This document shows, one piece after another, positions 2,974-38,725 of a stretch of 41,511 nucleotides of DNA (positions are counted from its first letter, which is position 1; each line of letters starts with the position of its first letter). The stretch is from IMG/VR virus record IMGVR_UViG_2802429229_000003; one strand, written 5' to 3'. The stretch is from a virus (lineage: Duplodnaviria > Heunggongvirae > Uroviricota > Caudoviricetes). Position numbers and translations under genes: made by a program. The notes under the pieces were generated by a model, which ran no database searches, was not told the DNA's origin, and saw only the letters and a program-made list of their open reading frames with translations.

Positions 2974-5900
2974 TTAACATTCCCCCATCACGTCGCATAT
3001 TTAACAGATTGCCCTGCACCCGCTGATCAACCATCCCCATAAGTGCTTTTATTGCCTGAGGGCCAATCTCTCCATTCTGGCCGTCATTTTGAATAGTGAT
3101 TTGGTATACAGGGGCATAGGTAATATCTCCGCCTCCATTACCACTTTTACTATTAATAGCTCTGACACCAAGAGAACCATCGGAAGTTCGTGTTAATGGC
3201 ATAATGGCTTCCGGTCCAGCCTCACCAAAAACACCAGCCCCTTTTGCAAAAGCAAAAAATTGCGGGGAATCATAAATACCGTTCGAATACGTGCTCAATG
3301 ACGGAGACTCATAAACACCGCCCTTTGCATTCGGAATAAATTTACTAATAGCACTCCCGATAGTTCCTAAAATCCCCCCAGAAGAACTGTTACTAATGCT
3401 GTCGAAAATCCCAGTAATTGAAGCCTTTAATGCTATTCGACTAAGATCCGAAATCACGGAAGTAGCGAAAGAACGAAAATTTGCCTTGCCTGTCGTGACA
3501 AAATCACCCAGCGCATCGGTCATTCCATCAAACATCTGAGTCGTGGTTGATTTTATCTGCTCACTGATATCCTTAGTGTCATCCAGCCAGTTATTGAATC
3601 CCTGGGAGGCACCACTAACCCAGTCTCCTGCCTGAATATCGAGCTGCTCGTTTTTCTGTCTGACAATTTCTTTTTCCCGTTCCAGAGCATCATTCAGAGC
3701 CTGCATTTTCTCTTGAAAAACATGATCTGACATTCCACGGGATTTATCTGCATAGTCACGTTCAAGTTGCAGACGCTGATTGTTATATCCATGTTCAATC
3801 CGCAGTAATTCCTGCTGGCGTTGCTGATTTTTATCGCCAACCCCATAACCAGCAATCTGAATATCATACCCCTGCTGACGATTATCAATCGAAGCCTGCA
3901 ATGAATCACGCCATGCTGTTATTTCGGCGGATTCCTTGATTAGCCTGTTATTTTTTTCAATCGCAACATTTTTCTCCATCAACGTGGTTATTTCTTCCCG
4001 GTGTAAGAGAAGCGATTTCTGATCCTGGGTTAATTTCGATGATGGTCGTGACTCTAGGTCGGCAATCCGCTGACGCCACTTAACCAGTTCCTGTTCAGAG
4101 GAACTTAATTTAACGGTCAACTCAGCTTGTGAACTTAGTAACGCATTCTGTTGATTCAGATGATCAATCATTCGTTGGGCTGCATCATCAGAATAATCTT
4201 TCGCCTTTGGTTGCTTTGGATCTTTATAACGCTCATTTATTTGAGCGATAAGATTATTATATTCTTCCTTTGAATACTGATTCTTTAGCTTTTCCAGTTT
4301 TGCAAGTTCACTAGCTCTCTGCTGCTCCCGGGTCTGATATTGTTTTGAAAAGGCATCTGCTCTCTGTCTGAGTTCAATTCCTTCCTGTTGTCGCTTGTTG
4401 TAATCGTTTATTGATGAATTTAGTACGTCCTGAGCAATTTTTTCTGCTTGAAGTACGCCCAATTGCTGCTTTAATCGTGCCAGCCTTTTATTTTGAGCTC
4501 CGCCATCTCCAATGCCACCTAACCCGAAAACTCCGGGTCGGGTATTTTTTTCTATTTCATCAATTTGACGGAGAACATCTGAGATTTTTTGATCAAGGGA
4601 GGCCTCACGGCCAATATCCAGCATGGAATCCCATGCCCATTTTGCGGAGTCTGCGACAGCTTTCCATGCAGTCTCAAGATAACCAAGATTTTCTTTAATC
4701 TGGTTGGTGCGCTGGATCATTGAGGATGAGTATTCTTCTGTCGCAATGCGGGCGGCCTCCTGCTGGTTCCCTTCATCCTGTAGCGCCTTAATCTGGTTAT
4801 AAGTCGCAAGTGTCAGAAAATGGTACTGATCATTAAGTTTTGATATGGCACTGACAGGATCCTTTGCAATTTCATTGAAGTCATTAACCAGTTGTTCGGT
4901 TGATATTCCTGTTACTTCGCTCGTTTTTACTATCGCTGTCGTCACTTGCTCCAGCGAACTGCTCGCTACCTTTCCCGAACGCACAAGCTGATTTAATACT
5001 GCCGCCGCAGCACCAGTTGTCGAATCAGCCGCATTCCCGGCACGTTGAGCTATATCGCCCAATTGCCCGCTGGTTGTCCCCAACTGATTTCCGGTAAGAA
5101 TAAGAGATTTATTAAATTCGTCCTGCTCCTGAGAGCCTTTATAGTAAGCCAGTCCTAAGACCCCAACGGCTGCTGCGGCCAGGGTAAAAGGATTAATTAA
5201 TCCCAGCACATAAGAACCTACACCTTTGATCGCCGGGCCAATCCCACCGAACATATCTTTTAGCTGGCCGCCCTGCTGCATTAACACCATAAATGGCGAC
5301 TGACCAGTGGACAACCCAACAACAATATCCGTCATTTGTGCAGGCAACATGCGCATAGCAAAAGCCGTTTGTTTTGCCGACATTCCGGTTTTGCTTAATT
5401 GTGATTGAGTAACCTCAAGCTCACTCCGCATAGCACGAAGTTTTCCAGAAAGCTCCTCATACATTTCAGGAGAAAGCATCCCCTTAGCTTTTGCTTCATT
5501 GAGCTGTTTCTGTTGTTCTACCAGACGATTAAAAGCAGTTCCGACAGGATCAAGTTGAGCAATCAGACGTTGCAAAGCAACAACCTGTTCATCATGCGCT
5601 TTTGCTGCTTCTCGCTCTGCCTGAGCCTCTCCAGTAAGCTCTCGCCGTGTTTCCTGTATTTTTCGGCTATAATTCTCAAACTGAGAACCATTTATTTTCC
5701 CGGATGCAAACGCAGCATTAAGTTCATCATGCTGTTGTTCAAGATTTCTTAGCGCCGCAGCCAGAGGGTCGATCTTGTCCAGCATTCTTTGAAAGGCCTG
5801 AGCCTGCGCTTCCTGCTGGGCGGCAGCAAGTTTTCCGGCCTTCTCGGCTTCTCTCTGCGCTTGCGCAACCCCGCTCAATTCCTCTGTGGTTTCATTAAGT

Positions 5901-16934: not shown

Positions 16935-17186
16935 TTAGTCCTGATTTTTATCCACCCTGAGTAGTTCGCGCAGAGCAAAGGCATCCCCTTTTCTGGCAAG
17001 CTTAAACAATGCCGCTCGTAACTCGGCTTCACCTTTCGCTCTGCCCTTACGGATGGCCGCATAAAAATCTGTCATTGCTTCCCGATTTTCTTTCAGTCGG
17101 TTCAGATCAACATCCAGAACGTCAGCGATTTGTTGTGCAGTCATCCGGCACGCTGCCAGAGACTCGACTTTCGAATACGGAATCAT
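16935..17186 (-). CDS. Hypothetical small protein upstream of the small terminase gene (69-83 aa depending on start)
   Basis: ORF with possible starts at 17186 (GGGGGTGA RBS) or 17144; no recognised motif. Confidence 0.4.
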   Translation of the reverse strand: MIPYSKVESLAACRMTAQQIADVLDVDLNRLKENREAMTDFYAAIRKGRAKGEAELRAALFKLARKGDAFALRELLRVDKNQD

Positions 17187-18054
17187 TTGTCACCCCCATT
17201 GATATGCAGGGTGTCTTCTTCCTGTATTTTTCGTGAAGGATTTTTACTGCAGCGTTGTTCCAGGTGACCTGATGGTGAATGCGTTTATGGCTGGCACCCA
17301 TCAGTGAGATTTTTACGCACGACGGCGCATACATGACGGAGTAAAAACTTTTAACGTAGGTTCCGGAATCCAGATACAGCTCGGTCATTCCGCCGCTGTT
17401 TTTCTGCGTCTGTTTCTGCCCTAACTGGACAGCACCGATCGTCATAAACAATTCACCACAGCGACCGAGATTCGTGTACGTATTCACATCCTCGTTAATG
17501 CGCCCCATGAATGAGAACGGTCGATCAACCGAACAGATAAAGCTGTTCATTGCCTTGCGTTTCACCCACGAAGCATGGCCGCCATTGTCACCAAGAAAAT
17601 CCCCGCCCTGCGACATAGCGATGGAAAGAGCAGGTATTGATTCGTAGTACGCCAGCATTTCAGAAAGGATCGCATCCAGTTTCCTTATCGGAAAATAGGC
17701 CTGGTCATAGTTGCGATCCACCCGAAACTGGAACTCGTGATAATCATCATCGAGCTGAATGAAGTATTTACACCCGACCAGTTTTGCCAGGTCGAAACAG
17801 GCATTACGGGCGTAAAAAATTGAGCGGCGGTCACAGAAATTATCGGCTTCGTCAAAACGACTGGCGATATCGGCTTTGGAAAACACCAGCACCTGTTCAC
17901 CAAATTCAGCCATGTACTGATGCCGTGTCTTATCTTCATCATCAACAACGATAAAAATTTTCCCGGTATAGCCAGCACGACGCAACGTCCGGTAAGTCAG
18001 AACTTTGTCCGGTCGCCCGTGAGTCAGAATAAAGGCGCAAAAATCATCACGCAT
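17122..18054 (-). CDS. Hypothetical protein with glycosyltransferase GT-A-like motif pattern, 310 aa (function uncertain)
   Basis: ATG at 18054 after GGAGGAGG RBS, overlapping the ParB-like stop (ATGCGTGA). Motif series AFILTHGRPD, KIFIVVDDED and YFIQLDDDYHEF parallels the beta1 / DxD pattern of GT-A transferases such as SpsA. Confidence 0.55.
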   Translation of the reverse strand: MRDDFCAFILTHGRPDKVLTYRTLRRAGYTGKIFIVVDDEDKTRHQYMAEFGEQVLVFSKADIASRFDEADNFCDRRSIFYARNACFDLAKLVGCKYFIQLDDDYHEFQFRVDRNYDQAYFPIRKLDAILSEMLAYYESIPALSIAMSQGGDFLGDNGGHASWVKRKAMNSFICSVDRPFSFMGRINEDVNTYTNLGRCGELFMTIGAVQLGQKQTQKNSGGMTELYLDSGTYVKSFYSVMYAPSCVKISLMGASHKRIHHQVTWNNAAVKILHEKYRKKTPCISMGVTNDSVFESRVSGSVPDDCTTNR

Positions 18055-18838
18055 ATTCCTCCTCCTCACCACCATGCATGATCTCCACCATGCGCTGCGT
18101 CATCCGGACAAATCCATTTTCAATAGCCTGCTGATAATCAATGATCACCAGCGCCGACTCCTCGAAAAAACACTGAATTTCAGAGGGGGCGTGAGCGTAA
18201 TAGTCCGCAATTCTGCTGAAATTAAACACCGTGTGACGTTCTGCCGCACACAGGAGGAATTTCTCAATATCAGGCTCAAGGGACGCCGAACGTATCCGGC
18301 TGATCAGCTCCTGAGTTTTCGTATCGTCGTACAGTTCACTGATATCCGGTTTACCGCCCGACGGCTCATAAACAGGCGTATCAATTTTCGTCGTATACGG
18401 CTCCTCCTCATTTCCTGTACCGGGCAAAACATCCGTCAACAGTTCATCAATTTCTGTCGGGATGAAGCCTGTCAGGGAGACATCAAAATCAGCATTGATT
18501 AGGTCCGACAGCTCCATCCGCAACAGATCTTCATCCCAGCCAGCATTCATCGGCAGGCGATTATCTGCCAGGCGGTACGCCTTTTTCTGCTCATCCGTCA
18601 GGCCAGACAGAACAATGACCGGAACAGAATCCATTTTGAGCATTTCAGCCGCCATAACACGACCGTGACCCGCAATAATTTCGCCCTTTTCGTCAATCAG
18701 CACCGGATTAGTCCAGCCGAATTGCTTAATACTTTCTACCAGTTGTGCCACCTGCTCAGTACTGTGCGTCCTGGCGTTGTGCGCATACGGTGACAATTCT
18801 TGTAATGGGCGATAGACTATCTTTAATTTCTCGCTCAT
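18047..18838 (-). CDS. ynaK: ParB-like nuclease domain protein (YnaK-like), 263 aa
   Basis: N-terminal region YRPLQELSPYAHNARTHSTEQVAQLVESIKQFGWTNPVLIDEKGEIIAGHGRVMAA has the ParB / sulfiredoxin GxGR signature; position matches ynaK next to trkG in Rac as I recall. Confidence 0.7.
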   Translation of the reverse strand: MSEKLKIVYRPLQELSPYAHNARTHSTEQVAQLVESIKQFGWTNPVLIDEKGEIIAGHGRVMAAEMLKMDSVPVIVLSGLTDEQKKAYRLADNRLPMNAGWDEDLLRMELSDLINADFDVSLTGFIPTEIDELLTDVLPGTGNEEEPYTTKIDTPVYEPSGGKPDISELYDDTKTQELISRIRSASLEPDIEKFLLCAAERHTVFNFSRIADYYAHAPSEIQCFFEESALVIIDYQQAIENGFVRMTQRMVEIMHGGEEEEYA

Positions 18839-18975: not shown

Positions 18976-20433
18976 TTAGGAGCGCCAAAAAAAACCTGAA
19001 AACAATATAATAACAGGATAAATTTCAAGGCGACCAAGAATCATAGCTATGCACATTAAACATTTTGCAATGTCATTAAGTACTCCGAATGACGATGCAG
19101 TAGCCCCAAAACCTAATCCCATATTATTAATACATGCAGCCACTGTTGCAAATGATGTAAGAAAATCATATCCCATACCATTTAACACCAGTATAAAAAA
19201 CACCGTAAAGAGAGTATAAAGAAAAAAGAAACTCCATACAGACCTCATTACACGATCTGTAACTATCTTCCCTCCTACATTTACACTCAACAACGCTCTG
19301 GGATGAGAAAGCTGATTTATCTCGTGTTTGCTTTGTTTGAAAAGTATAAGAAATCGAAGTGACTTAATTCCACCACAAGTTGAACCTATACATCCCCCAA
19401 AGAAACTTGACAACAGCAAAAATACTATCGTGTGCGTGGGCCAACTTGCATAATCCTGCGTAGCTAAACCATTATCAGTGAGCATGGAGCTGGCAAGAAA
19501 AAACGAATGAATAAAACTTCCATGCAAGTCATACATACCTATATGCCAGACCTGGAAAGAGGTAACAATGATCACCCCTAAGGCTATTAACAGAAAGAAA
19601 CGAAGTTCAATATCTCTGATTAAAGGTTTTATCGTTTTCCTGCTAATAACAATATACCAAAGAGTGAAGTTGAAAGCCGATAGCAGGGAAAAAGAACCAG
19701 CCACCAGCTCAACCAAATAGTTATTAAAATATCCGATACTCTCGCTATGAGTTGAGAAACCACCAAGCGAAACTGTGGAAATCCCGTGACAAATAGCATC
19801 AAACAAAGGCATTCCTGCAAGTCTATAACAGACAATACAAGCAATACCTAATAAAGAATAAGTTATCCACAGTGTCCGTGACGTATCGGCCAGGCGGGGA
19901 GTGAGTTTGTCATCCTTAAATGGCCCCGGCATTTCTGACTGATAAAGCTTTGCACCACCAATACCCAATAATGGCAATACAGCAACCGCCAGAACAATAA
20001 CTCCTAAACCACCTATAAAATTTAACTGTGACCGATAGTACAAATATGCCCGAGGTAATGAACTAACATCATCAATTACAGTTGCTCCTGTTGTTGTTAT
20101 TCCAGAAACCCCTTCAAACAGAGCATCAATGAACGTTAAATTAAGTTCTGAGTCAATCCATAAAGGGAATGCACTAATAACAGAAAACAAAATCCAAAAC
20201 ATTACAATTATAATAAACCCATCACGGGTACGTAATTGAATGCCAGATTTCTTAGTTGTATACCACGCTCCGCCACCAATGCAAAAAAATATAACGAAAG
20301 TTATAAAGAAAACGAACAGGCTTTTTTCTTTATAAAACAATGCTACAACCATTGGTGGCAACATTGAAAGACTATAGAGCCAAACCAGGAACCCACACAT
20401 ATGAGTAACAACTCTTACATGAGATGTATTCAT
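18976..20433 (-). CDS. trkG: Trk system potassium uptake protein TrkG (Rac prophage moron), 485 aa
   Basis: Polytopic membrane protein with repeated GGxK and Gly-rich pore-loop motifs; sequence from MNTSHVRVVTHMCGF matches my recollection of TrkG. AT-rich relative to flanking phage genes. Confidence 0.85.
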   Translation of the reverse strand: MNTSHVRVVTHMCGFLVWLYSLSMLPPMVVALFYKEKSLFVFFITFVIFFCIGGGAWYTTKKSGIQLRTRDGFIIIVMFWILFSVISAFPLWIDSELNLTFIDALFEGVSGITTTGATVIDDVSSLPRAYLYYRSQLNFIGGLGVIVLAVAVLPLLGIGGAKLYQSEMPGPFKDDKLTPRLADTSRTLWITYSLLGIACIVCYRLAGMPLFDAICHGISTVSLGGFSTHSESIGYFNNYLVELVAGSFSLLSAFNFTLWYIVISRKTIKPLIRDIELRFFLLIALGVIIVTSFQVWHIGMYDLHGSFIHSFFLASSMLTDNGLATQDYASWPTHTIVFLLLSSFFGGCIGSTCGGIKSLRFLILFKQSKHEINQLSHPRALLSVNVGGKIVTDRVMRSVWSFFFLYTLFTVFFILVLNGMGYDFLTSFATVAACINNMGLGFGATASSFGVLNDIAKCLMCIAMILGRLEIYPVIILFSGFFWRS

Positions 20434-20570
20434 ATCTAAATATTCTTTCAATTATAACCACCTTGCTGCAATATTATGATTATACTGTATAAAATTTAAC
20501 TCCTCTTAGATCTTACTTCACTGTTCCTTATGAAACAATCATCAAAATGAATCATATTGTAGTTAAGATT

Positions 20571-21511: not shown

Positions 21512-21853
21512 TTACTCCTTATGGGCACCGAACTTGTTACCGATGACCCTCATTGCCGCACCACGAATAGCATCAACACCAATCAGCCCCACCCCACCAC
21601 CAATGGCAACAGAAAGTGATTTAGGCCATCCGACATACTCAAGCGCGGATGCAAAGGTCAGCGTCAGAGCACCACAAAGCAGAATCTCAAGCGTTTTTCG
21701 TTTCCAGCCGCCGCCACCGCCAAAATAGGCAATGCGCAAACCAGCCATAATAATTGACATAACCACTGCACCCAGCGGCGTATCTCCACGCCACCAACTT
21801 TGTAAGAGTTCCAGTAAGTCAGGCCAGGAATGAGGGGCATTGTGCATTTTCAT
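21512..21853 (-). CDS. Holin with Met-Lys-Met dual-start motif (non-lambda holin family)
   Basis: GGAGGUGA RBS, then AUG AAA AUG (starts at 21853 and 21847); hydrophobic segments and charged C-terminus; immediately upstream of R. Confidence 0.65.
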   Translation of the reverse strand: MKMHNAPHSWPDLLELLQSWWRGDTPLGAVVMSIIMAGLRIAYFGGGGGWKRKTLEILLCGALTLTFASALEYVGWPKSLSVAIGGGVGLIGVDAIRGAAMRVIGNKFGAHKE

Positions 21854-21951
21854 AAGCCTCACCTCCGAGAGTTCGGATGGTGCTAAGTGTAAGATTCAGG
21901 CTCTCAGGCTTGCTAACAAGAAGTCGAGGATGTTTCCGGAGCCTAACAACG

Positions 21952-21976
21952 AAAAAGCCCCGGGACATGCCGGGGC
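21952..21976 (-). terminator. Intrinsic terminator (GCCCCGG stem plus U5) about 100 nt upstream of the holin gene
   Basis: Minus strand GCCCCGG-cauguc-CCGGGGC followed by UUUUUCGUUGUU. Confidence 0.55.
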
Positions 21977-22070
21977 CAGATGGAGTGCCAGATTAAGCTT
22001 CTGGCGGTATATACTCGTGTTTGATATCGTTAAATCGCCAAAAGTAACAATTCAAACAAAGAGGATTTTT

Positions 22071-22232
22071 ATGTCTGAAAAAAACAAACCACAAGGTGAA
22101 AATAAACCTCAGCAACCCGTGGCACCAAAACCAACTCCAACACAAAGTACTACAGACTTTGCTACACGTCGTGTTTTTGTTGGAGATTCTGCCGACTCAG
22201 TCATTGAACATATAAAAAAACAGCCGAGATAA
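22071..22232 (+). CDS. Hypothetical small protein, 53 aa, Pro/Gln-rich (MSEKNKPQGENKPQQPVAPKPTPTQSTT...)
   Basis: ATG at 22071 with AGAGGA RBS at 6-nt spacing; convergent with and overlapping the 3' end of the 189-aa gene by about 30 nt. Confidence 0.3.
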   Translation: MSEKNKPQGENKPQQPVAPKPTPTQSTTDFATRRVFVGDSADSVIEHIKKQPR

Positions 22233-22770
22233 ACATCGCCGCTACCGGAGCAAGGATGGTATACATCCTTGCTTTATCGAGACTCGTGCGGATTTTCTCA
22301 TTTTCCAACAGTAACTCTCTTGCTGTATCACTCAAGTCAACAAGGCGATACCTTCGTATAAGCGGCAATAACTTATCAGGTCCTAAATATCCTGCATCAG
22401 CGAATATTTTAAAGCTCGAGGGCTCCATATCCTTATATTTTTCATGATATAGATGATCAGGAGGGGCATTGATCAGGCCCCTAACCTTCACAGATAAACC
22501 AGTACATACCAAGTAAATGGCGCACCATGTCCATAGTAATGTAAATGTGGTAATTCCGGCGGTGAGAAAATCGAAATTAGTTTTCTGTGTCAGCAATAAA
22601 AAAGATGAACCAATTCCAACAATCTGAATGTTCAGAAGTTTGTATCCATTCTCAACATTGGTTTTGTTAGAAAGATGAATCTCTCGTATCGTCTCTTCCC
22701 CTTGTTTTTCAAGATAATCGACGAGCTCATCATCTACTCCTAAAAAATAATCTTTAGGTAGTTCTCTCAT
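22201..22770 (-). CDS. AT-rich moron: hypothetical membrane protein, 189 aa
   Basis: ATG at 22770 with GGAGGUGAG RBS; hydrophobic segments around aa 60-110 and 170-189; sampled 60-nt line about 33% GC. Confidence 0.6.
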   Translation of the reverse strand: MRELPKDYFLGVDDELVDYLEKQGEETIREIHLSNKTNVENGYKLLNIQIVGIGSSFLLLTQKTNFDFLTAGITTFTLLWTWCAIYLVCTGLSVKVRGLINAPPDHLYHEKYKDMEPSSFKIFADAGYLGPDKLLPLIRRYRLVDLSDTARELLLENEKIRTSLDKARMYTILAPVAAMFISAVFLYVQ

Positions 22771-22798
22771 CTCACCTCCACATCCTGTACTGAAAACA

Positions 22799-22807
22799 AT
22801 TTTACCA
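22799..22807 (-). promoter_or_regulatory. Candidate extended -10 promoter element (TGgTAAAAT) upstream of the 189-aa moron gene
   Basis: Minus-strand TGGTAAAAT about 30 nt upstream of the ATG at 22770; no convincing -35 hexamer. Confidence 0.3.
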
Positions 22808-22877
22808 GAATGTCTCGATTCTAGGTATTCCGCCAGGAATCGCGCTCCAGAAATGAAACATCAGGTTCGCCAGTACC

Positions 22878-22910
22878 AGAAACAACAAAACCCGCTCAAT
22901 GGCGGGTTCT
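22878..22910 (-). terminator. Terminator-like hairpin downstream of the putative Q gene (candidate tR'-type terminator)
   Basis: Minus strand AACCCGC-cauuga-GCGGGUU followed by UUGUUGUUUCUGG; about 85 nt after the Q stop. Confidence 0.45.
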
Positions 22911-22991
22911 GGTAAAGTTCATGCGCTTGGTTCGCCTCGCGATACAGCTTTGCGAAGCATACCGGAATTGAAGCAGTTTATGCGTAAAAAA

Positions 22992-23534
22992 TCAAGCTAT
23001 TTTTTGAGCAAATGATTCTCGCATGGGAATATATAGGGCATACTCAGCAACAGCCAACCAATTAGCAATTCGCTTTTCGCATGTGCTAAAACACCACTCA
23101 GGATGTGCATCATTTAGCAATTCAGCCATTTTGCGCTTAGTCATCCCCCGTCCTTCATACCGTTGCCGGAGGACACTAATCAATCCAGGATGCTCTGCCA
23201 GCACCTCACTTATGACTCTATCAATACATAACGCCTCTGCATCAGTACAATGCGCCAGCCAGGTCTTTTGCTTGCCATTGATCATCTCTCGCAAAAACGC
23301 TTCCAGCTCAGGTTTCTCTATTCCCGCTTTTTTCATCCTGCGCAGGGCTTCATTGACGGCTGTTTTCGTCAATTTTTTGGATGCCAGCAACTGGTTAAAC
23401 ATATTTCCCGTCTTACCGCCGCCAATATACGACCAGCGCCCCCACATGCGCAGTTTTCCCTGAATCCAGACACTTTCCAGCGTGGTGAGACGAAGGTGTT
23501 CCCCGCTTTTGCCTGTATTTGTTGGGTAAATCAT
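22992..23534 (-). CDS. Putative late-gene antiterminator Q, about 180 aa
   Basis: Last gene of the nin region before the lysis cassette; ATG at 23534 overlaps the upstream stop (ATGA) with GGAGAAAGGAAGG RBS. Assigned by position; no sequence similarity to lambda Q recalled. Confidence 0.5.
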   Translation of the reverse strand: MIYPTNTGKSGEHLRLTTLESVWIQGKLRMWGRWSYIGGGKTGNMFNQLLASKKLTKTAVNEALRRMKKAGIEKPELEAFLREMINGKQKTWLAHCTDAEALCIDRVISEVLAEHPGLISVLRQRYEGRGMTKRKMAELLNDAHPEWCFSTCEKRIANWLAVAEYALYIPMRESFAQKIA

Positions 23535-24889: not shown

Positions 24890-25045
24890 TTACTCCTCAG
24901 GTTCGTAAGCTGTGAAGACAGCGACCTCCGTCTGACCGGTTCGGATTCGCACCTCGCAGAGGTCTTTCCTCGTTACCAGTGCCGTCACTATGACGGTTAA
25001 ACAGATGACAATCAGTGCGACTAACATCGCCTTTTGCTGCTTCAT
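24890..25045 (-). CDS. hok: Hok/Gef-family type I toxin, 51 aa
   Basis: MKQQKAMLVALIVICLTVIVTALVTRKDLCEVRIRTGQTEVAVFTAYEPEE: N-terminal TM helix and conserved RKDLCEVRIRTGQTEVAVF core. Confidence 0.85.
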   Translation of the reverse strand: MKQQKAMLVALIVICLTVIVTALVTRKDLCEVRIRTGQTEVAVFTAYEPEE

Positions 25046-25102
25046 AGCCTGCTTCTCCTTGCCTTCCGGCGCGTAAGAGGCTAACCTACATGTGCAAAGC
25101 AT
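24890..25102 (-). CDS. mok-like in-frame upstream extension of hok, 70 aa
   Basis: In-frame ATG at 25102 gives MLCTCRLASYAPEGKEKQA then the Hok sequence, the same arrangement as chromosomal mok/hok loci. Confidence 0.5.
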   Translation of the reverse strand: MLCTCRLASYAPEGKEKQAMKQQKAMLVALIVICLTVIVTALVTRKDLCEVRIRTGQTEVAVFTAYEPEE

Positions 25103-25693: not shown

Positions 25694-28600
25694 CTATGTA
25701 TCTGAGCCAAACATAGAGCGCCGCCTTGTTATTTTATAATAAGTGGGATTTTCATTATCCACCTCAAAATCAGAGAAGAAGTGGTTATCTCTTAATGCTG
25801 TTAATAAACTTTGATTAGTTGAATCAACTTCAATTTTAGGTTTGCCTCGCCCCAAAATTTTACTGAACTCCGATAAACCAAGCAGATCAAGATACTCTTT
25901 GCAAGTCGTCTTACTCAAATCCTTACCCGGCAACAAAGCGATTAGCAGTGCTATTTTATTCTGCATATTCAGTCCCTCTGCGACAAACAGGTTTTTTAGT
26001 AACGGTTCAGAAACATCATTAGGACTTGCTATCAATGCTGATATATCCTGTATTGCTCGACTCAAGATGAGCGACTGAGTAGAGGTTCCCCAAGTTTTAT
26101 AAGATGACGTCAAGATTAGAAGTTCATCTGGTTTAAAATTATTTTCTAAAATATAGTCATTAACGACCTGAGAGTAATTCTTACTATAAATAGCCAACGG
26201 AGTTTTAACAAACTCGAGTAGCTTAACTTTCAAATCATCATCAACTTTCCAAGAAAGTATTGATATAGCCTCATCCAAAATAAAGTTATCAATCGTCATT
26301 AATTCAACGTATGCCCTGATATTCTTATGAATATAATAGGAAAGTTGCTCTGAATAGTTATCTCGTATGAAATTAAGTGGCGCAACATTCATACGAATAA
26401 TATTTTTATCCACTAATATTTTGAACTTATCACTCGCGATATTACTAGCGCTAAAGGATGTTTTACAAATAATATTTAGTGAGCAAATTAATTTTTCATA
26501 TTTATCATTTGATAAATCATTACAGATAACAATCGATTTAAATAATTTACCTTTAAGCTCGTTATCAATATTAATATTTTGAAAATTCAGGTCTACATCA
26601 GTTCTATTGATAAATTCGATAAGTGAGTCATCCAGTCCATCAACATGTTCAAAATAAGAGACAATATTTTCCTCAGAGCACACTGCTCTATCTTTATCCA
26701 ACAAAGATGACCATAAAGATTCGCTCTCAACCTCACTCAGAGATGTCACGAAAGTTTGCAAAGCGTTTATATACTGGCCTTTTTGTTCATCAGATATTCC
26801 CTCATTATTAAGAACGGATAAAACAATGGATTCATCATCCACGATTGAACCATCACAACTAGATAAAACCATATCCAGATAGTCCCTAATATGGTTATTA
26901 ACATAACTAGCCAAGGGAGAATCAGGTTGTGACATCACTAGTGTATAGTTCTTATGGCGAATATCATCTTCACTATTAAGCGTGTAAACCTTACTCAGCA
27001 TTAAGGTCAGGTTGGAAAAATTAATATCATAAAGTGAATGCTGGTAAACCGCATCAAAGAGTACTTTATTTGCGTTTTCAAATTTAATACTGACAAAAGA
27101 GACGTTAAGCAACTTAAAACCACTAATTAATTTGTCAACCTTCGGTTCTGATATTGCTAAATAACCTGCCGAATCAGAGATGTAATCAGTCAGACAATCA
27201 TCAATATTAATGGCCTCGATGGCGTCATTGGCAGAATAATAAAACGTGCCTATAGAGTAGAGTTTAACCCAATCAGCAGAAAATTCACTCTCTGTCAGCG
27301 CATAAGAAAAAAACTCAGGCCACTGTGTATTTAATCGATTAATGAAGACAGGCTGAGCCCTCTCAGTTTCAAAGTAACCACGAATAAACTCAACTCTTCT
27401 ATCTTTTCTTAGTTGTTTGAATAAACGTTTTATTAAGTTTACCTGGGCTGGCGTTTGAAGCAGATAAGCTAATAAATCAAAATTAAGCGCCTCTTCCTGT
27501 TCAAAATCCACTTCTCGAAGGCGGGCAACGACCAGCTTGGGGTTCTTGAGTTGATAAGTGAACTCTTTGCCTTTTTGATCGGTAATGCTGCGTAAAAACA
27601 TCTTATCAATTCGACTCAGGCTATTTTCATAAAAATAGGTCATATAGTCGGTATAGGTTTCATCAATATAACCATCACGAATAAGGTATTTAAGCAAGTC
27701 AAAATACTCACTGCTTTTTATTTCATTAAAGTCTCTTTCCTCTCCAATTTCATTGGTATAGGTGAGTTTAAATATTTCATCAATGTTTTCTCTAGTTATT
27801 ACTTCTTTAAGTCTTTTGTTTCTAAAATCAACCAAACTTTCTCTTGATCTTGATATAAGCTCATTAATTTCTTCTATTTTACCATTAAATTTATTTTCAA
27901 CACTTTCTTTTCTAGCCGCCCTTCTCTTTGCTATATCAGCTTTCTCAGCCTGATTATAGTGAGGATGATTATTATATCTAGATAATTCCTTATCGTATAT
28001 AGCATCAACCTCCTGACTAGAGTTGAGTATTTCATCATTGATTGCCTCAATCTCTTTTTTTCTATCTCTAATATCTTTTTCTATTTTCTTTATTTCTTCA
28101 ATAATAAGGTTGTCTTTTTCACTAAATATGGTATAAACCATACCTTGATTAAGTTGCAACTCACTAAAATCTCTTGGGAAAATATTCTTATAGGCAATAA
28201 TGGCCAACATTTTATTACAGTCAAGTTCTGTCGTGTTTAATTTGTTATAATAAATTTGAAATTCGTTATAAATATTCTTCAATATTCTCATATCATCAAT
28301 ATATAAAGACATCCCTTGTAGAAATCTTTCATTGAACAACTTGAGAATACCACCACCATCAAAATGTGTGATAAACTGATCGTAAGAGTTAGAACTATCA
28401 ACAACAGGAATAACTGGAATGATATAATCAAAGAATTTGGTTCTATCCTTCGAAATGAAGATATCATCACGAAGCAAGTAAATAAAACGTAACGTCGATT
28501 TCTTGTGCCCTGCTGTGTCCCGTTGAATATTAACCAGTCTGTTAACCTCATGAAGACGTTCAAAGATGTTATTACTATTAAAACGGTCCATGTCTTCAAA

Positions 28601-29326
28601 AACAATGGCATCAGCATCAACGTTCTCGAAAAGGTACAATACTTCATTTAAATATCTATCGAAATAAGACTCGTTACTTTCTTCAAAAATCTCTATTTCA
28701 TTACCCTGTAAATTTATTTTCTTAAGAACATTACGATTCTTTTGGGTTTTTATTAACTTGTAAATGAAAATACAAGATAGGATAGTACATATAAACCCAC
28801 TAATTAAAAGCGTATCGTATTTAGTTGATAATGTAAGTAGTGTCTTTATATTACCTTCAGATAAAAGTGAAACAAACTTTTCCCACTTATTAAATAGCGT
28901 GATATGTAGTATCATAGCGATAAATAACACCGTAAAGATGGTGTTTATCACAATGTTGTTAGTTTTTATTTTTTTCTTTACTTTAAAATGTGTCTGGGGA
29001 ATATCATCAGCATTAATTTGGTGAATTAACTGGTTAAGAACTTTACCTTCTAACGCGGTTTCATTTATATCTTTACTTGGTTCATTAGTTTCAGCTTCCT
29101 CAATCGATCTGAAATGAGCAAGTGAGATATGAACAAACTTTATATTTGAATGACTTTTCTTATAGGATTCGATAAGACTACTTTTTCCTGCGCTATATTG
29201 CCCTGATATCGCAACATTTTTTAGATCGTTATTGGCAAAAACAAAATCTATCGCATTTTTATATACACCCAGCTCAACATCGCTGAACGGCGTTAACTTT
29301 TGAAATTTATAGCTATCATCACTCAT
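25694..29326 (-). CDS. KAP-family P-loop NTPase, 1210 aa, with two transmembrane helices inserted between Walker A and Walker B; AT-rich moron
   Basis: Walker A GQYSAGKSS (aa 42-50, nt 29177-29203); hydrophobic helices at aa ~123-145 and ~172-192; Walker B DAIVFEDMDR (aa 239-248, nt 28583-28612); about 950-aa C-terminal region with a coiled-coil-like stretch. RBS GGGAAGGGA before ATG at 29326. Sampled lines about 25-30% GC. Confidence 0.8.
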   Translation of the reverse strand: MSDDSYKFQKLTPFSDVELGVYKNAIDFVFANNDLKNVAISGQYSAGKSSLIESYKKSHSNIKFVHISLAHFRSIEEAETNEPSKDINETALEGKVLNQLIHQINADDIPQTHFKVKKKIKTNNIVINTIFTVLFIAMILHITLFNKWEKFVSLLSEGNIKTLLTLSTKYDTLLISGFICTILSCIFIYKLIKTQKNRNVLKKINLQGNEIEIFEESNESYFDRYLNEVLYLFENVDADAIVFEDMDRFNSNNIFERLHEVNRLVNIQRDTAGHKKSTLRFIYLLRDDIFISKDRTKFFDYIIPVIPVVDSSNSYDQFITHFDGGGILKLFNERFLQGMSLYIDDMRILKNIYNEFQIYYNKLNTTELDCNKMLAIIAYKNIFPRDFSELQLNQGMVYTIFSEKDNLIIEEIKKIEKDIRDRKKEIEAINDEILNSSQEVDAIYDKELSRYNNHPHYNQAEKADIAKRRAARKESVENKFNGKIEEINELISRSRESLVDFRNKRLKEVITRENIDEIFKLTYTNEIGEERDFNEIKSSEYFDLLKYLIRDGYIDETYTDYMTYFYENSLSRIDKMFLRSITDQKGKEFTYQLKNPKLVVARLREVDFEQEEALNFDLLAYLLQTPAQVNLIKRLFKQLRKDRRVEFIRGYFETERAQPVFINRLNTQWPEFFSYALTESEFSADWVKLYSIGTFYYSANDAIEAINIDDCLTDYISDSAGYLAISEPKVDKLISGFKLLNVSFVSIKFENANKVLFDAVYQHSLYDINFSNLTLMLSKVYTLNSEDDIRHKNYTLVMSQPDSPLASYVNNHIRDYLDMVLSSCDGSIVDDESIVLSVLNNEGISDEQKGQYINALQTFVTSLSEVESESLWSSLLDKDRAVCSEENIVSYFEHVDGLDDSLIEFINRTDVDLNFQNINIDNELKGKLFKSIVICNDLSNDKYEKLICSLNIICKTSFSASNIASDKFKILVDKNIIRMNVAPLNFIRDNYSEQLSYYIHKNIRAYVELMTIDNFILDEAISILSWKVDDDLKVKLLEFVKTPLAIYSKNYSQVVNDYILENNFKPDELLILTSSYKTWGTSTQSLILSRAIQDISALIASPNDVSEPLLKNLFVAEGLNMQNKIALLIALLPGKDLSKTTCKEYLDLLGLSEFSKILGRGKPKIEVDSTNQSLLTALRDNHFFSDFEVDNENPTYYKITRRRSMFGSDT

Positions 29327-36103: not shown

Positions 36104-38725
36104 ATGAGCACAAAACCACTCTTCCTGTTACGGAAAGCGAAAAAATCATCCGGTGAACCTGACGTCGTCCTGTGGGCAAGCAACGATTTTGAATCGACCT
36201 GTGCCACTCTGGACTACCTGATCGTTAAGTCAGGTAAAAAACTGAGCAGCTATTTTAAAGCTGTTGCCACGAATTTTCCTGTCGTTAATGACCTGCCCGC
36301 TGAAGGTGAGATCGATTTTACCTGGAGTGAACGCTATCAACTCAGCAAAGACTCCATGACATGGGAACTAAAACCGGGAGCAGCACCAGACAACGCTCAC
36401 TATCAAGGCAATACCAACGTCAACGGCGAAGACATGACTGAGATTGAGGAGAATATGCTACTCCCAATTTCTGGCCAGGAACTGCCCATTCGTTGGCTTG
36501 CTCAACACGGCAGCGAAAAACCGGTAACGCACGTTTCACGCGACGGACTCCAGGCATTACACATTGCTCGGGCTGAAGAACTACCGGCTGTTACTGCCCT
36601 GGCTGTTTCCCACAAAACCAGCCTGCTCGACCCGCTGGAAATTCGCGAACTCCACAAACTGGTTCGTGACACTGACAAAGTTTTCCCTAATCCTGGTAAT
36701 TCAAACCTGGGACTGATAACTGCTTTTTTCGAAGCATACCTGAACGCTGACTACACCGATCGAGGACTGCTGACAAAAGAGTGGATGAAGGGTAATCGTG
36801 TTTCACACATCACTCGCACGGCTTCCGGTGCTAATGCTGGCGGCGGAAACCTCACCGATCGCGGCGAAGGTTTCGTACACGATCTGACGTCACTGGCGCG
36901 CGACGTAGCCACTGGCGTACTGGCCCGTTCAATGGATCTGGACATCTATAACCTTCATCCGGCACACGCTAAACGCATTGAGGAAATTATCGCTGAAAAT
37001 AAACCGCCCTTTTCTGTTTTCCGCGACAAATTCATCACCATGCCTGGCGGGCTGGATTATTCCCGCGCCATCGTGGTTGCGTCCGTAAAAGAAGCACCAA
37101 TTGGGATCGAGGTCATCCCCGCGCACGTCACTGAATATCTGAACAAAGTACTGACTGAAACCGATCATGCCAACCCTGATCCGGAAATCGTGGATATTGC
37201 CTGCGGTCGCTCCTCTGCCCCGATGCCGCAGCGAGTAACAGAAGAAGGAAAACAGGATGATGAAGAAAAACCGCAACCATCTGGAACAACGGCAGTTGAA
37301 CAGGGAGAGGCTGAAACAATGGAACCGGACGCAACTGAACATCATCAGGACACGCAGCCGCTGGATGCTCAGTCACAGGTAAATTCTGTTGATGCGAAAT
37401 ATCAGGAACTGCGGGCAGAACTCCATGAAGCCCGGAAAAACATTCCATCAAAAAATCCTGTCGATGACGATAAATTGCTTGCTGCATCACGTGGTGAATT
37501 TGTTGACGGAATTAGCGACCCGAACAATCCGAAATGGGTTAAGGGGATCCAGACTCGCGATTCTGTGTACCAGAACCAGCCAGAAACGGAACAAAACACG
37601 CCAGAAACGGAAAAAACCAGCCCGGATGTGAAACAACCTGAGCCAGTAGTGCAACAGGAACCGGAAATAGTCTGCAATGCCTGCGGTCAGACTGGCGGGG
37701 ATAACTGCCCTGACTGTGGTGCGGTGATGGGCGACGCAACATACCAGGAAACATTCGATGAAGAGAATCAGGTTGAAGCTAAGGAAAATGATCCGGAGGA
37801 AATGGAAGGCGCTGAACATCCGCACAATGAGAATGCAGGCAGCGATCCGCATCACGATTGCAGTGATGAAACTGGCGAAGTCGCAGATCCCGTAATCGTA
37901 GAAGACATAGAGCCAGGTATTTATTACGGAATTTCGAATGAGAATTACCACGCGGGTCCCGGTGTCAGTAAGTCTCAGCTCGACGACATTGCTGATACTC
38001 CGGCACTGTATTTGTGGCGTAAAAATGCCCCCGTGGACACCACAAAGACAAAAACGCTCGATTTAGGAACCGCTTTCCACTGCCGGGTACTTGAACCGGA
38101 AGAATTCAGTAACCGCTTTATCGTAGCACCTGAATTTAACCGCCGTACAAACGCCGGAAAAGAAGAAGAGAAAGCGTTTCTGATGGAATGCGCAAGCACA
38201 GGAAAAACGGTTATCACTGCGGAAGAAGGCTGGAAAATTGAACTCATGTATCAAAGCGTTATGGCTTTGCCGCTGGGGCAATGGCTTGTTGAAAGCGCCG
38301 GACACGCTGAATCATCAATTTACTGGGAAGATCCTGAAACAGGAATTTTGTGTCGGTGCCGTCCGGACAAAATTATCCCTGAATTTCACTGGATTATGGA
38401 CGTGAAAACTACGGCGGATATTCAACGATTCAAAACCGCTTATTACGACTACCGCTATCACGTTCAGGATGCATTCTACAGTGACGGTTATGAAGCACAG
38501 TTTGGAGTGCAGCCAACTTTCGTTTTTCTGGTTGCCAGCACAACTATTGAATGCGGACGTTATCCGGTTGAAATTTTCATGATGGGCGAAGAAGCAAAAC
38601 TGGCAGGTCAACAGGAATATCACCGCAATCTGCGAACCCTGTCTGACTGCCTGAATACCGATGAATGGCCAGCTATTAAGACATTATCACTGCCCCGCTG
38701 GGCTAAGGAATATGCAAATGACTAA
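36104..38725 (+). CDS. recE: Exodeoxyribonuclease VIII (RecE), 873 aa
   Basis: Long ORF with acidic low-complexity middle region; C-terminal nuclease region matches RecE as recalled; stop overlaps the recT start. Confidence 0.85.

Follow-up and report, generated by a model that had tools for sequence, protein, structure and literature searches.

What is carried between the late antiterminator gene Q and the holin gene S of a Rac-like lambdoid prophage of Escherichia coli, and why does a gene for a membrane protein in that interval run head-on into a second gene for a protein of only 53 amino acids (aa)? The prophage is the virus record IMGVR_UViG_2802429229_000003, whose full stretch of 41,511 nucleotides (nt) is here called the window, and the two genes are an open reading frame (ORF) for a 189-aa protein on the minus strand and, converging on it from the plus strand, the ORF for the 53-aa protein. 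An earlier note, made from the window alone, had described the larger ORF with its strong ribosome-binding site (RBS), an extended -10-like element ahead of it, the convergent Pro/Gln-rich small ORF and an overlap of about 30 nt, and each of these was found where it had been placed. We find that they belong to a two-gene phage cassette that is genuine, widespread and as yet uncharacterised and whose convergent layout is unusual; further conserved RNA and promoter-like elements and an obligate small partner extend that first description. The anatomy of the cassette is established by comparison of loci, and its function is what we infer.

The evidence that carries this finding is the constancy of the partnership. 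Ninety-one loci were fetched, giving 59 distinct homologous gene sequences of 42-100% identity, and a convergent small ORF of 47-64 aa is present in all 59, overlapping the 3' end of the large gene by 20-42 nt (32 nt in the window). Among more distant relatives, the small ORF of a Pasteurella locus (34% identity; MSNQKPSQ...VFIGDSVDIPKKK) abuts the end of the large gene with no overlap, and a relative lying next to a cI gene (28% identity) has a convergent small ORF overlapping its 3' end; the picture is less clear for a relative on a GC-rich contig (22% identity), whose convergent small ORF likewise overlaps its 3' end, and for one in a tail-gene slot (35% identity), where the small ORF is shorter, at 30 aa. 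Homologues of the small protein fall into 68 protein clusters and share one plan, MS(E/Q)xNKP followed by a Pro/Gln-rich stretch, DF(S/A)xxR-(F/L/I)VGDSA(D/E) and a basic tail, and since the overlap does not include the (F/L/I)VGDSA(D/E) motif, this motif is no by-product of the large gene. The pairwise ratio of non-synonymous to synonymous substitution rates (dN/dS) is 0.08-0.5, which indicates purifying selection, with 11 synonymous vs. 4 non-synonymous changes between the small ORFs of one pair of loci (L010 and L011) and 10 vs. 6 between those of the window and of a Leclercia prophage; there are also codon switches between TCT and AGY for serine and between CGN and AGR for arginine. The RBS of the small gene (AGAGGA, 22060-22065, 5 nt before the ATG) and its start codon are conserved among the loci as well. 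Judged by these comparisons, the 53-aa ORF is an obligate partner conserved at the protein level, and both ORFs form one conserved module.

RefSeq starts the small gene further upstream, giving a 71-aa product (22017-22232), and we rejected this start given that the frame ahead of the ATG shows no conservation among loci and that the RefSeq start precedes a conserved -10-like element; the between-locus comparison indicates that the ATG at 22071, giving 53 aa, is the real one. AlphaFold 2 (AF2) models the 53-aa protein as mostly unstructured, with one short C-terminal helix at residues 40-50 and a predicted template-modelling score of 0.19, and no recognisable fold or domain was found in it. 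The E. coli small ORF has a run of seven A at codons 3-5 (22077-22083, plus strand), which is not conserved in other genera, and at one locus (L105, around position 3190) the run is A8 instead of A7 and the small ORF is frameshifted, which either slippage-prone variation or an error of sequencing could account for.

The way in which the module decays is also informative. Three lineages (Leclercia, an E. coli/E. marmotae lineage and Klebsiella) have a frameshifted or truncated large gene beside an intact small ORF, and in one case both genes are broken, the small ORF by the change from A7 to A8, while the reverse, an intact large gene beside a broken small ORF, was not seen among the loci compared. 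This pattern is consistent with a costly effector that has a brake.

The product of the large gene contains three hydrophobic stretches free of charged residues (45-62, 69-92 and 169-189), in agreement with the middle and C-terminal segments of the earlier note, and because the loop at residues 93-168 is rich in K and R, the positive-inside rule places its N-terminus probably in the cytoplasm and its C-terminus outside. AF2 predicts three long helices (14-62, 68-92 and 134-188) with a predicted local distance difference test score (pLDDT) of 83.6. The gene begins directly after a strong RBS (GGAGGTGAG, 22779-22771), and its guanine-plus-cytosine (GC) content is 38.9%, higher than the 33% or so that had been estimated, vs. 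47-51% for Q, S and R and a window average of 45.7%. The earlier note had recognised no homologue. Homologues do exist (phrog_11870, phrog_14506 and more than 100 protein clusters), and all of them are uncharacterised: those of the large protein form 104 clusters across the Enterobacterales with identity down to 42%, nearly all 189 aa long, and an exhaustive profile search returned 104 representatives (50% clustering) and reached proteins of 160-200 aa at about 20% identity, with members from Achromobacter, Burkholderia, Pandoraea and Alcaligenes added by a later search. Some members have longer N-termini, in which Pfam detected no fused domains and which are probably mis-called starts.

Compared across prophages, the cassette proves to be a self-contained, horizontally mobile two-gene unit of about 0.9 kb (21938-22829), placed just downstream of the candidate Q-controlled late promoter and the terminator that follows it. 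In E. coli prophages with the same Q, similarity is lost at about 22877-22887, and in those with the same holin at about 21865-21879; in strain COL60J, whose Q and S are the same, the slot is occupied by an ORF6N gene, with homology breaking at 21865 and 22877, and a Leclercia prophage shares only the segment 21938-22829, at 86.6%. The interval had been read earlier as an insert with its own promoter-like element and terminator, and this agrees with the COL60J comparison and with the conservation of the -10-like element. As expected of a moron, the unit separates genes that adjoin each other in related phages and deviates from its neighbours in base composition, a terminator of its own is present, and on the promoter side there is a conserved extended -10-like motif. 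The note had further taken the gene to be bracketed by two terminator-like hairpins: both are present, at 22911-22886 and 21977-21956, and the upstream one is part of the Q/PR'/tR' unit of the phage and not of the cassette, because it is common to prophages without the insert, whose homology stops at about 22877-22887. The whole segment occurs in 223 of 5426 complete E. coli genomes (about 4%), with a partial match in 1445, and in four sequenced E. coli phages; most phages that have this Q and S lack it. Only 2 of 72,556 plasmid records contain the family, and all loci examined are phage-like.

The surroundings of the cassette were surveyed in 38 representative loci. Its immediate upstream gene is most often Q (PF03589, 11 hits; PF06530, 10 hits, overlapping 6 DUF1133 hits; PF06323, 3 hits), the remaining upstream neighbours are other morons, and the three Q families do not cover all loci. 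Holins of six Pfam families (28 hits) occur among the first two downstream ORFs. Some members of the family lie instead between tail chaperone and tape-measure genes, and some lie downstream of a cI-like repressor gene, in a rex-like slot. The six unrelated holin families and the tail and cI-adjacent slots speak for a portable unit and against a cognate antiholin, so that we rejected a specific antiholin role, and the lysis-timing factor of the earlier note is disfavoured on the same grounds. The Q-to-holin slot of other phages holds several tandem cargo units (5400-5560 of locus L007; 3200-5560 of locus L024), a Serratia prophage has tRNA genes before the cassette, and phage vB_Apl-pPE4 has an ORF6N-like gene before it and a TerB-like gene after it.

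The control elements of the cassette, collected in the table together with the genes, are likewise conserved. The motif nGnTAnnnT, mostly aGGTAAAAT, stands 24-36 nt before the large-gene ATG in 33 of 39 representative loci, with a chance expectation of about 7% per random window and with diverging flanks. The small gene is preceded by a block of about 30 nt whose conservation exceeds that of the coding regions, and within it TGnTAnnnT stands 37-48 nt before the small-ORF ATG, again in 33 of 39 loci (about 3% by chance), its variation being confined to positions that sigma-70 tolerates. In both elements, conservation falls exactly on the positions critical for sigma-70, and by their agreement with the consensus they are candidate promoters of the two genes. 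The conserved block was also considered as a site for CRP/FNR, LexA, Fur or IHF and rejected as such, with just partial matches by eye. The terminator of the large-gene unit shows covariation in 20 loci and lies inside the segment shared with Leclercia, and the hairpin beside it has variants, GCCGC/GCGGC and GCCAGT/ACTGGC, that preserve pairing (by eye on the alignment).

The strongest RNA signal of the cassette is a hairpin embedded in the large gene and kept in all loci. On the strand of the small gene, 95.7% of cells are paired and 4 of 11 pairs show compensatory change; none of 500 shuffles does as well, and in slid controls the figure is about 50%. Read on the opposite strand, 78.9% are paired, because G.U pairs there become A.C mismatches. 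The codon for Arg168, inside the hairpin, is AGR in 37 of 37 genes vs. 53% at other arginine codons. The hairpin begins at least about 15 nt past the small-ORF stop, and a T-run follows it in some loci. All of this indicates a functional, terminator-like 3' structure of the predicted small-gene transcript. An attenuator of the leader-peptide type, coupling the small-ORF stop to the hairpin, was rejected since the distance between the two is not constant, ranging from about 14 to 26 nt or beyond; an Rfam search of 21800-23050 gave no match, and the prophage small RNA svsR was discarded as a relative, given that it lies in cI and is unrelated. Conserved as they are across divergent phages, the promoter-like elements, the hairpins and both ORFs exceed what chance would leave.

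Table. Coordinates of the cassette and of its flanking late genes and signals in the window.
Feature	Positions	Strand	Basis or remark
Three-transmembrane inner-membrane protein gene, 189 aa (phrog_11870, function unassigned)	22201-22770	-	
Pro/Gln-rich small protein gene, 53 aa (phrog_14506, function unassigned)	22071-22232	+	converges on the 189-aa ORF
Extended -10-like element TGGTAAAAT for the 189-aa gene	22799-22807	-	28 nt before the ATG
Highly conserved non-coding block TTGATATCGTTAAATCGCCAAAAGTAAC with extended -10-like element TGATATCGT (22022-22030) for the small gene	22021-22048	+	
RNA hairpin of 11 bp within the 189-aa ORF, codons ~166-176 (A-R-M/I...I-L-A/T)	22247-22275	+	-18.4 kcal/mol, z -4.0
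Second conserved hairpin, GCCAGA...TCTGGC, beside the terminator	21987-22005	-	-9.1 kcal/mol, z -3.3
Intrinsic terminator of the 189-aa unit, beyond the small gene and its promoter	21956-21977	-	terminator scan; -16.4 kcal/mol
tR'-like intrinsic terminator	22886-22911	-	terminator scan; -16.1 kcal/mol, z -4.3
Candidate late promoter PR' (TTGATT-17 nt-TTCAAT), weak match, inferred only	22967-22995	-	read from the sequence
Q-like late antiterminator	22995-23534	-	Pfam DUF1133 2.8e-109, Phage_antitermQ 2.2e-06; PHROG 753, anti-termination protein Q-like
Lambda-family holin S, then R and Rz/Rz1	21512-21853	-	Pfam Phage_holin_3_1 1.9e-27; RefSeq annotation of the identical locus

What the cassette does has to be approached through its relatives. 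RefSeq lists both ORFs of the identical locus as hypothetical (WP_001208722.1 for the large and WP_152948782.1 for the small protein), a literature search for WP_001208722 returned nothing, and no description of the cassette was found in the general literature. The earlier note had proposed a profile-based and structure-based search with both ORFs, and this led to the uncharacterised families above and to no characterised homologue by sequence or fold: hidden Markov model searches of Protein Data Bank sequences gave no match for either protein, and neither did the holin families of Pfam and PHROG. One lead came from a wide-family scan with PADLOC, which gave matches for a few members and whose best match was located, by concatenating members, to a protein that we call P0129. 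This protein is a clear family member (E 4e-22 vs. the close-family profile) that shares the N-terminal DYFLD.DD.ML.YLE and RRY.L motifs, and it matches the PADLOC model of PycTM with an E value of 1.5e-08 over profile positions 7-152 of 160, and the two-transmembrane (2TM) effector model of cyclic-oligonucleotide-based antiphage signalling systems (CBASS) at about 4e-05 over positions 23-168 of 173. The Pfam family PF18967 (PycTM) is listed for P0129 in a precomputed table but not in a direct Pfam scan of the same protein set. PycTM is described as a pore-forming abortive-infection effector that disrupts membrane integrity (PMC11224242). We treat the link of the family to PycTM and 2TM effectors as a lead and not as a result; the abortive-infection option of the earlier note gains this much through one member, and the window protein itself gives no match. 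No cyclase or cGAS/DncV-like nucleotidyltransferase (CD-NTase) gene lies beside the cassette in any locus inspected.

From this anatomy a mechanism may be proposed, which we favour tentatively and would not yet call probable: the large gene would encode a membrane effector of a toxin-antitoxin-like kind that serves to abort or exclude infections, is held back by the small gene and is freed by late transcription or by shut-off of host expression. The predicted large and small transcripts would be complementary over about 240 nt (about 22037-22275), so that the small gene may act as a brake on the membrane gene, whether as an antisense RNA, by transcriptional interference, through its protein, or by a combination of these, and the large-gene transcript would have to cross the small-gene promoter before reaching its own terminator. 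The effector would probably permeabilise the membrane, as a distant relative of PycTM and the CBASS 2TM effectors. In the lysogen, the pair would behave as a toxin-antitoxin module, and when a superinfecting phage shuts off host expression, or upon induction, the short-lived brake would decay and the freed effector would damage the membrane, with the infection thereby aborted or excluded. Late transcription antiterminated by Q would oppose the small gene and override it, yielding the membrane protein in bulk. Still more specific, and in our opinion doubtful, is the proposal of an undescribed, signal-independent class of module, borne by phages and serving abortive infection or working as a toxin-antitoxin pair, in which a PycTM-like pore former that has lost its cyclase is joined to a dual-function convergent gene, giving both an antisense RNA and a disordered protein of about 50 aa, and which is built into the late operon and flipped by Q antitermination.

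Several observations weigh against the proposal of a restrained membrane effector, and we suggest keeping them in mind together. Neither the 189-aa nor the 53-aa protein matches Pfam, NCBIfam or PADLOC 2.0 (for PADLOC, at E values up to 1), and fold searches with the 189-aa protein returned nothing beyond generic matches of the long-helix, BAR-like sort; the PycTM link depends on a single divergent member, and the direct Pfam scan of that protein set does not list PF18967. A standard -35/-10 scan found no promoters at the cassette, where the candidates match the consensus only, and the counts of 59 of 59 and 33 of 39 come from loci related by descent and are not independent. Moreover, a part in the lytic cycle would suit the placement of the large gene as first late gene just as well. 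Such a role would be that of a late accessory protein that influences when lysis occurs or the state of the membrane, for instance through a depolarisation that sets off holins, while the antisense small gene silences it in the lysogen, and it would fit the position of most loci between a late antiterminator and a holin (28 holin hits for 38 loci, with Q most frequent upstream), as well as the large gene being sense and the small gene antisense to late transcription. We nevertheless judge it improbable, given the six unrelated holin families and several endolysin types that accompany the cassette, the lack of it in most phages that have this Q and S, the presence of a promoter-like element and a terminator of its own, as in lysogen-expressed morons, and the use of tail and cI-adjacent slots too.

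A better chance, although still an unlikely one, belongs to non-lethal superinfection exclusion, in which the three-transmembrane protein would block DNA entry like HK97 gp15 and P22 SieA, with the small gene tuning its level. A small inner-membrane protein with a lysogen-type promoter-like element is what this explanation would call for, and some members occupy the tail chaperone/tape-measure slot, which we take to be the location of HK97 gp15, and one lies beside cI; however, no sequence or PHROG link to annotated exclusion proteins was found, the constant attachment of a conserved small protein is left unexplained, and the similarity to PycTM and 2TM effectors suggests a lethal effector instead. 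To each of two further explanations we would give only a slight chance. If the peptide were functionless and the small-ORF region served solely as an antisense RNA in cis, after the fashion of type I toxin-antitoxin loci that overlap at the 3' end, the convergent overlap, the conserved 3' hairpin on the small-gene strand and the complementarity of about 240 nt would follow, but not the dN/dS of 0.08-0.5, the Ser TCT/AGY and Arg CGN/AGR switches, the conserved RBS and start codon, or the persistence of the peptide motif outside the overlap down to 34% identity of the partner. If, on the other hand, the large gene were ordinary lysogenic-conversion cargo, such as a membrane protein for host physiology, with the small gene linked by coincidence, this would suit the lack of a recognisable domain and the neighbouring cargo gene trkG, which is a host-physiology gene; against it stand the near confinement of the family to phages (2 of 72,556 plasmid records), the strict partnership and the elaborate control elements.

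Set beside known systems, the cassette resembles each only in part. With the lambdoid late-operon morons (bor and lom of lambda, and stx in the Q-S slot), it shares an inserted unit of lower GC with its own promoter-like element and terminator and a variable presence, and differs from them in having two convergent overlapping genes and an embedded RNA hairpin, with no homology to bor, lom or stx. Like PycTM of Pycsar systems and the CBASS 2TM effectors, the large protein is a small stand-alone membrane protein, and P0129 matches their models over nearly the full length; in contrast to those systems, there is no adjoining cyclase or CD-NTase, the partner is a disordered protein of about 50 aa encoded in antisense, and the window protein falls below detection by the models. 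Type I toxin-antitoxin loci with convergent, 3'-overlapping transcripts are known in par/fst (RNA I-RNA II) of pAD1, txpA/RatA and bsrG/SR4, and the cassette shares with them a membrane-targeted product, a predicted convergent partner transcript over the 3' end and a terminator-type stem-loop in the overlap region; that the transcripts overlap is suggested by features read from the sequence, namely promoter-like elements that face each other, a terminator placed past the small gene and the strand-specific hairpin. The candidate toxin, however, has 189 aa and three transmembrane segments and is not a peptide of <60 aa, and the partner is a protein-coding ORF under purifying selection, for which an additional RNA role is possible. 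Type II toxin-antitoxin systems differ in that their genes form a co-directional operon with a DNA-binding antitoxin, whereas here the genes converge and the small protein has no recognisable fold or domain. Prophage membrane proteins of exclusion or abortive infection include lambda RexB/RexA, SieB and HK97 gp15. P22 SieA is a further prophage exclusion membrane protein (PMC10883804). Like Rex, SieB, SieA and gp15, the large protein is a prophage-borne inner-membrane protein found in moron slots, including cI-adjacent and tail positions, but it has no sequence, PHROG or Pfam relation to them, and its partner and arrangement are different.

As for the prophage around the cassette, the order along the minus strand is nin genes of the YbcO and DUF1367 families, Q, the tR'-like hairpin, the 189-aa ORF, the 53-aa ORF on the opposite strand, the terminator, the holin gene, R, Rz/Rz1 and trkG. 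The candidate PR' scored under the threshold of the promoter scan, and the 129 bp that contain it (22877-23005) match a prophage without the cassette at 93%. The trkG gene (18976-20451, minus strand; 35-37% GC) directly follows Rz/Rz1 as in Rac, and RecE is encoded at 36104-38725; the prophage appears to be an intact relative of the Rac remnant in K-12. In the nin-like region, a 1210-aa ORF (25694-29326, minus strand), hypothetical in RefSeq for the identical locus, has an N-terminal YobI-like P-loop NTPase domain (Pfam PF20693, 1.7e-122) and could be defence cargo of the prophage. Between trkG and the terminase (17122-18838, minus strand) lie overlapping genes for a ParB_N/Srx-like protein and a TET-associated glycosyltransferase (TAGT, 3.8e-35), a pair that suggests a DNA-modification function. 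Upstream of the nin genes there is an ORF for a Hok/Gef-type toxin (MKQQKAMLVALIVICLTVIVTALVTRKDLCEVRIRTGQTEVAVFTAYEPEE; 24890-25102, minus strand), and therefore the same prophage already bears a classical type I toxin-antitoxin locus.

In summary, the two convergent genes, annotated as hypothetical throughout, travel together in phages from a wide range of Enterobacterales, and relatives occur in Pasteurellaceae and Burkholderiales. If the membrane protein is indeed a relative of the Pycsar and CBASS membrane effectors that works with no cyclase and is kept in check by a small protein encoded in antisense, the pair would constitute a compact candidate defence or exclusion system of 0.9 kb that current defence-finding tools overlook, as well as a clean natural case of convergent-gene control coupled to phage late transcription, and would link the effectors of signalling immunity to the logic of toxin-antitoxin systems.

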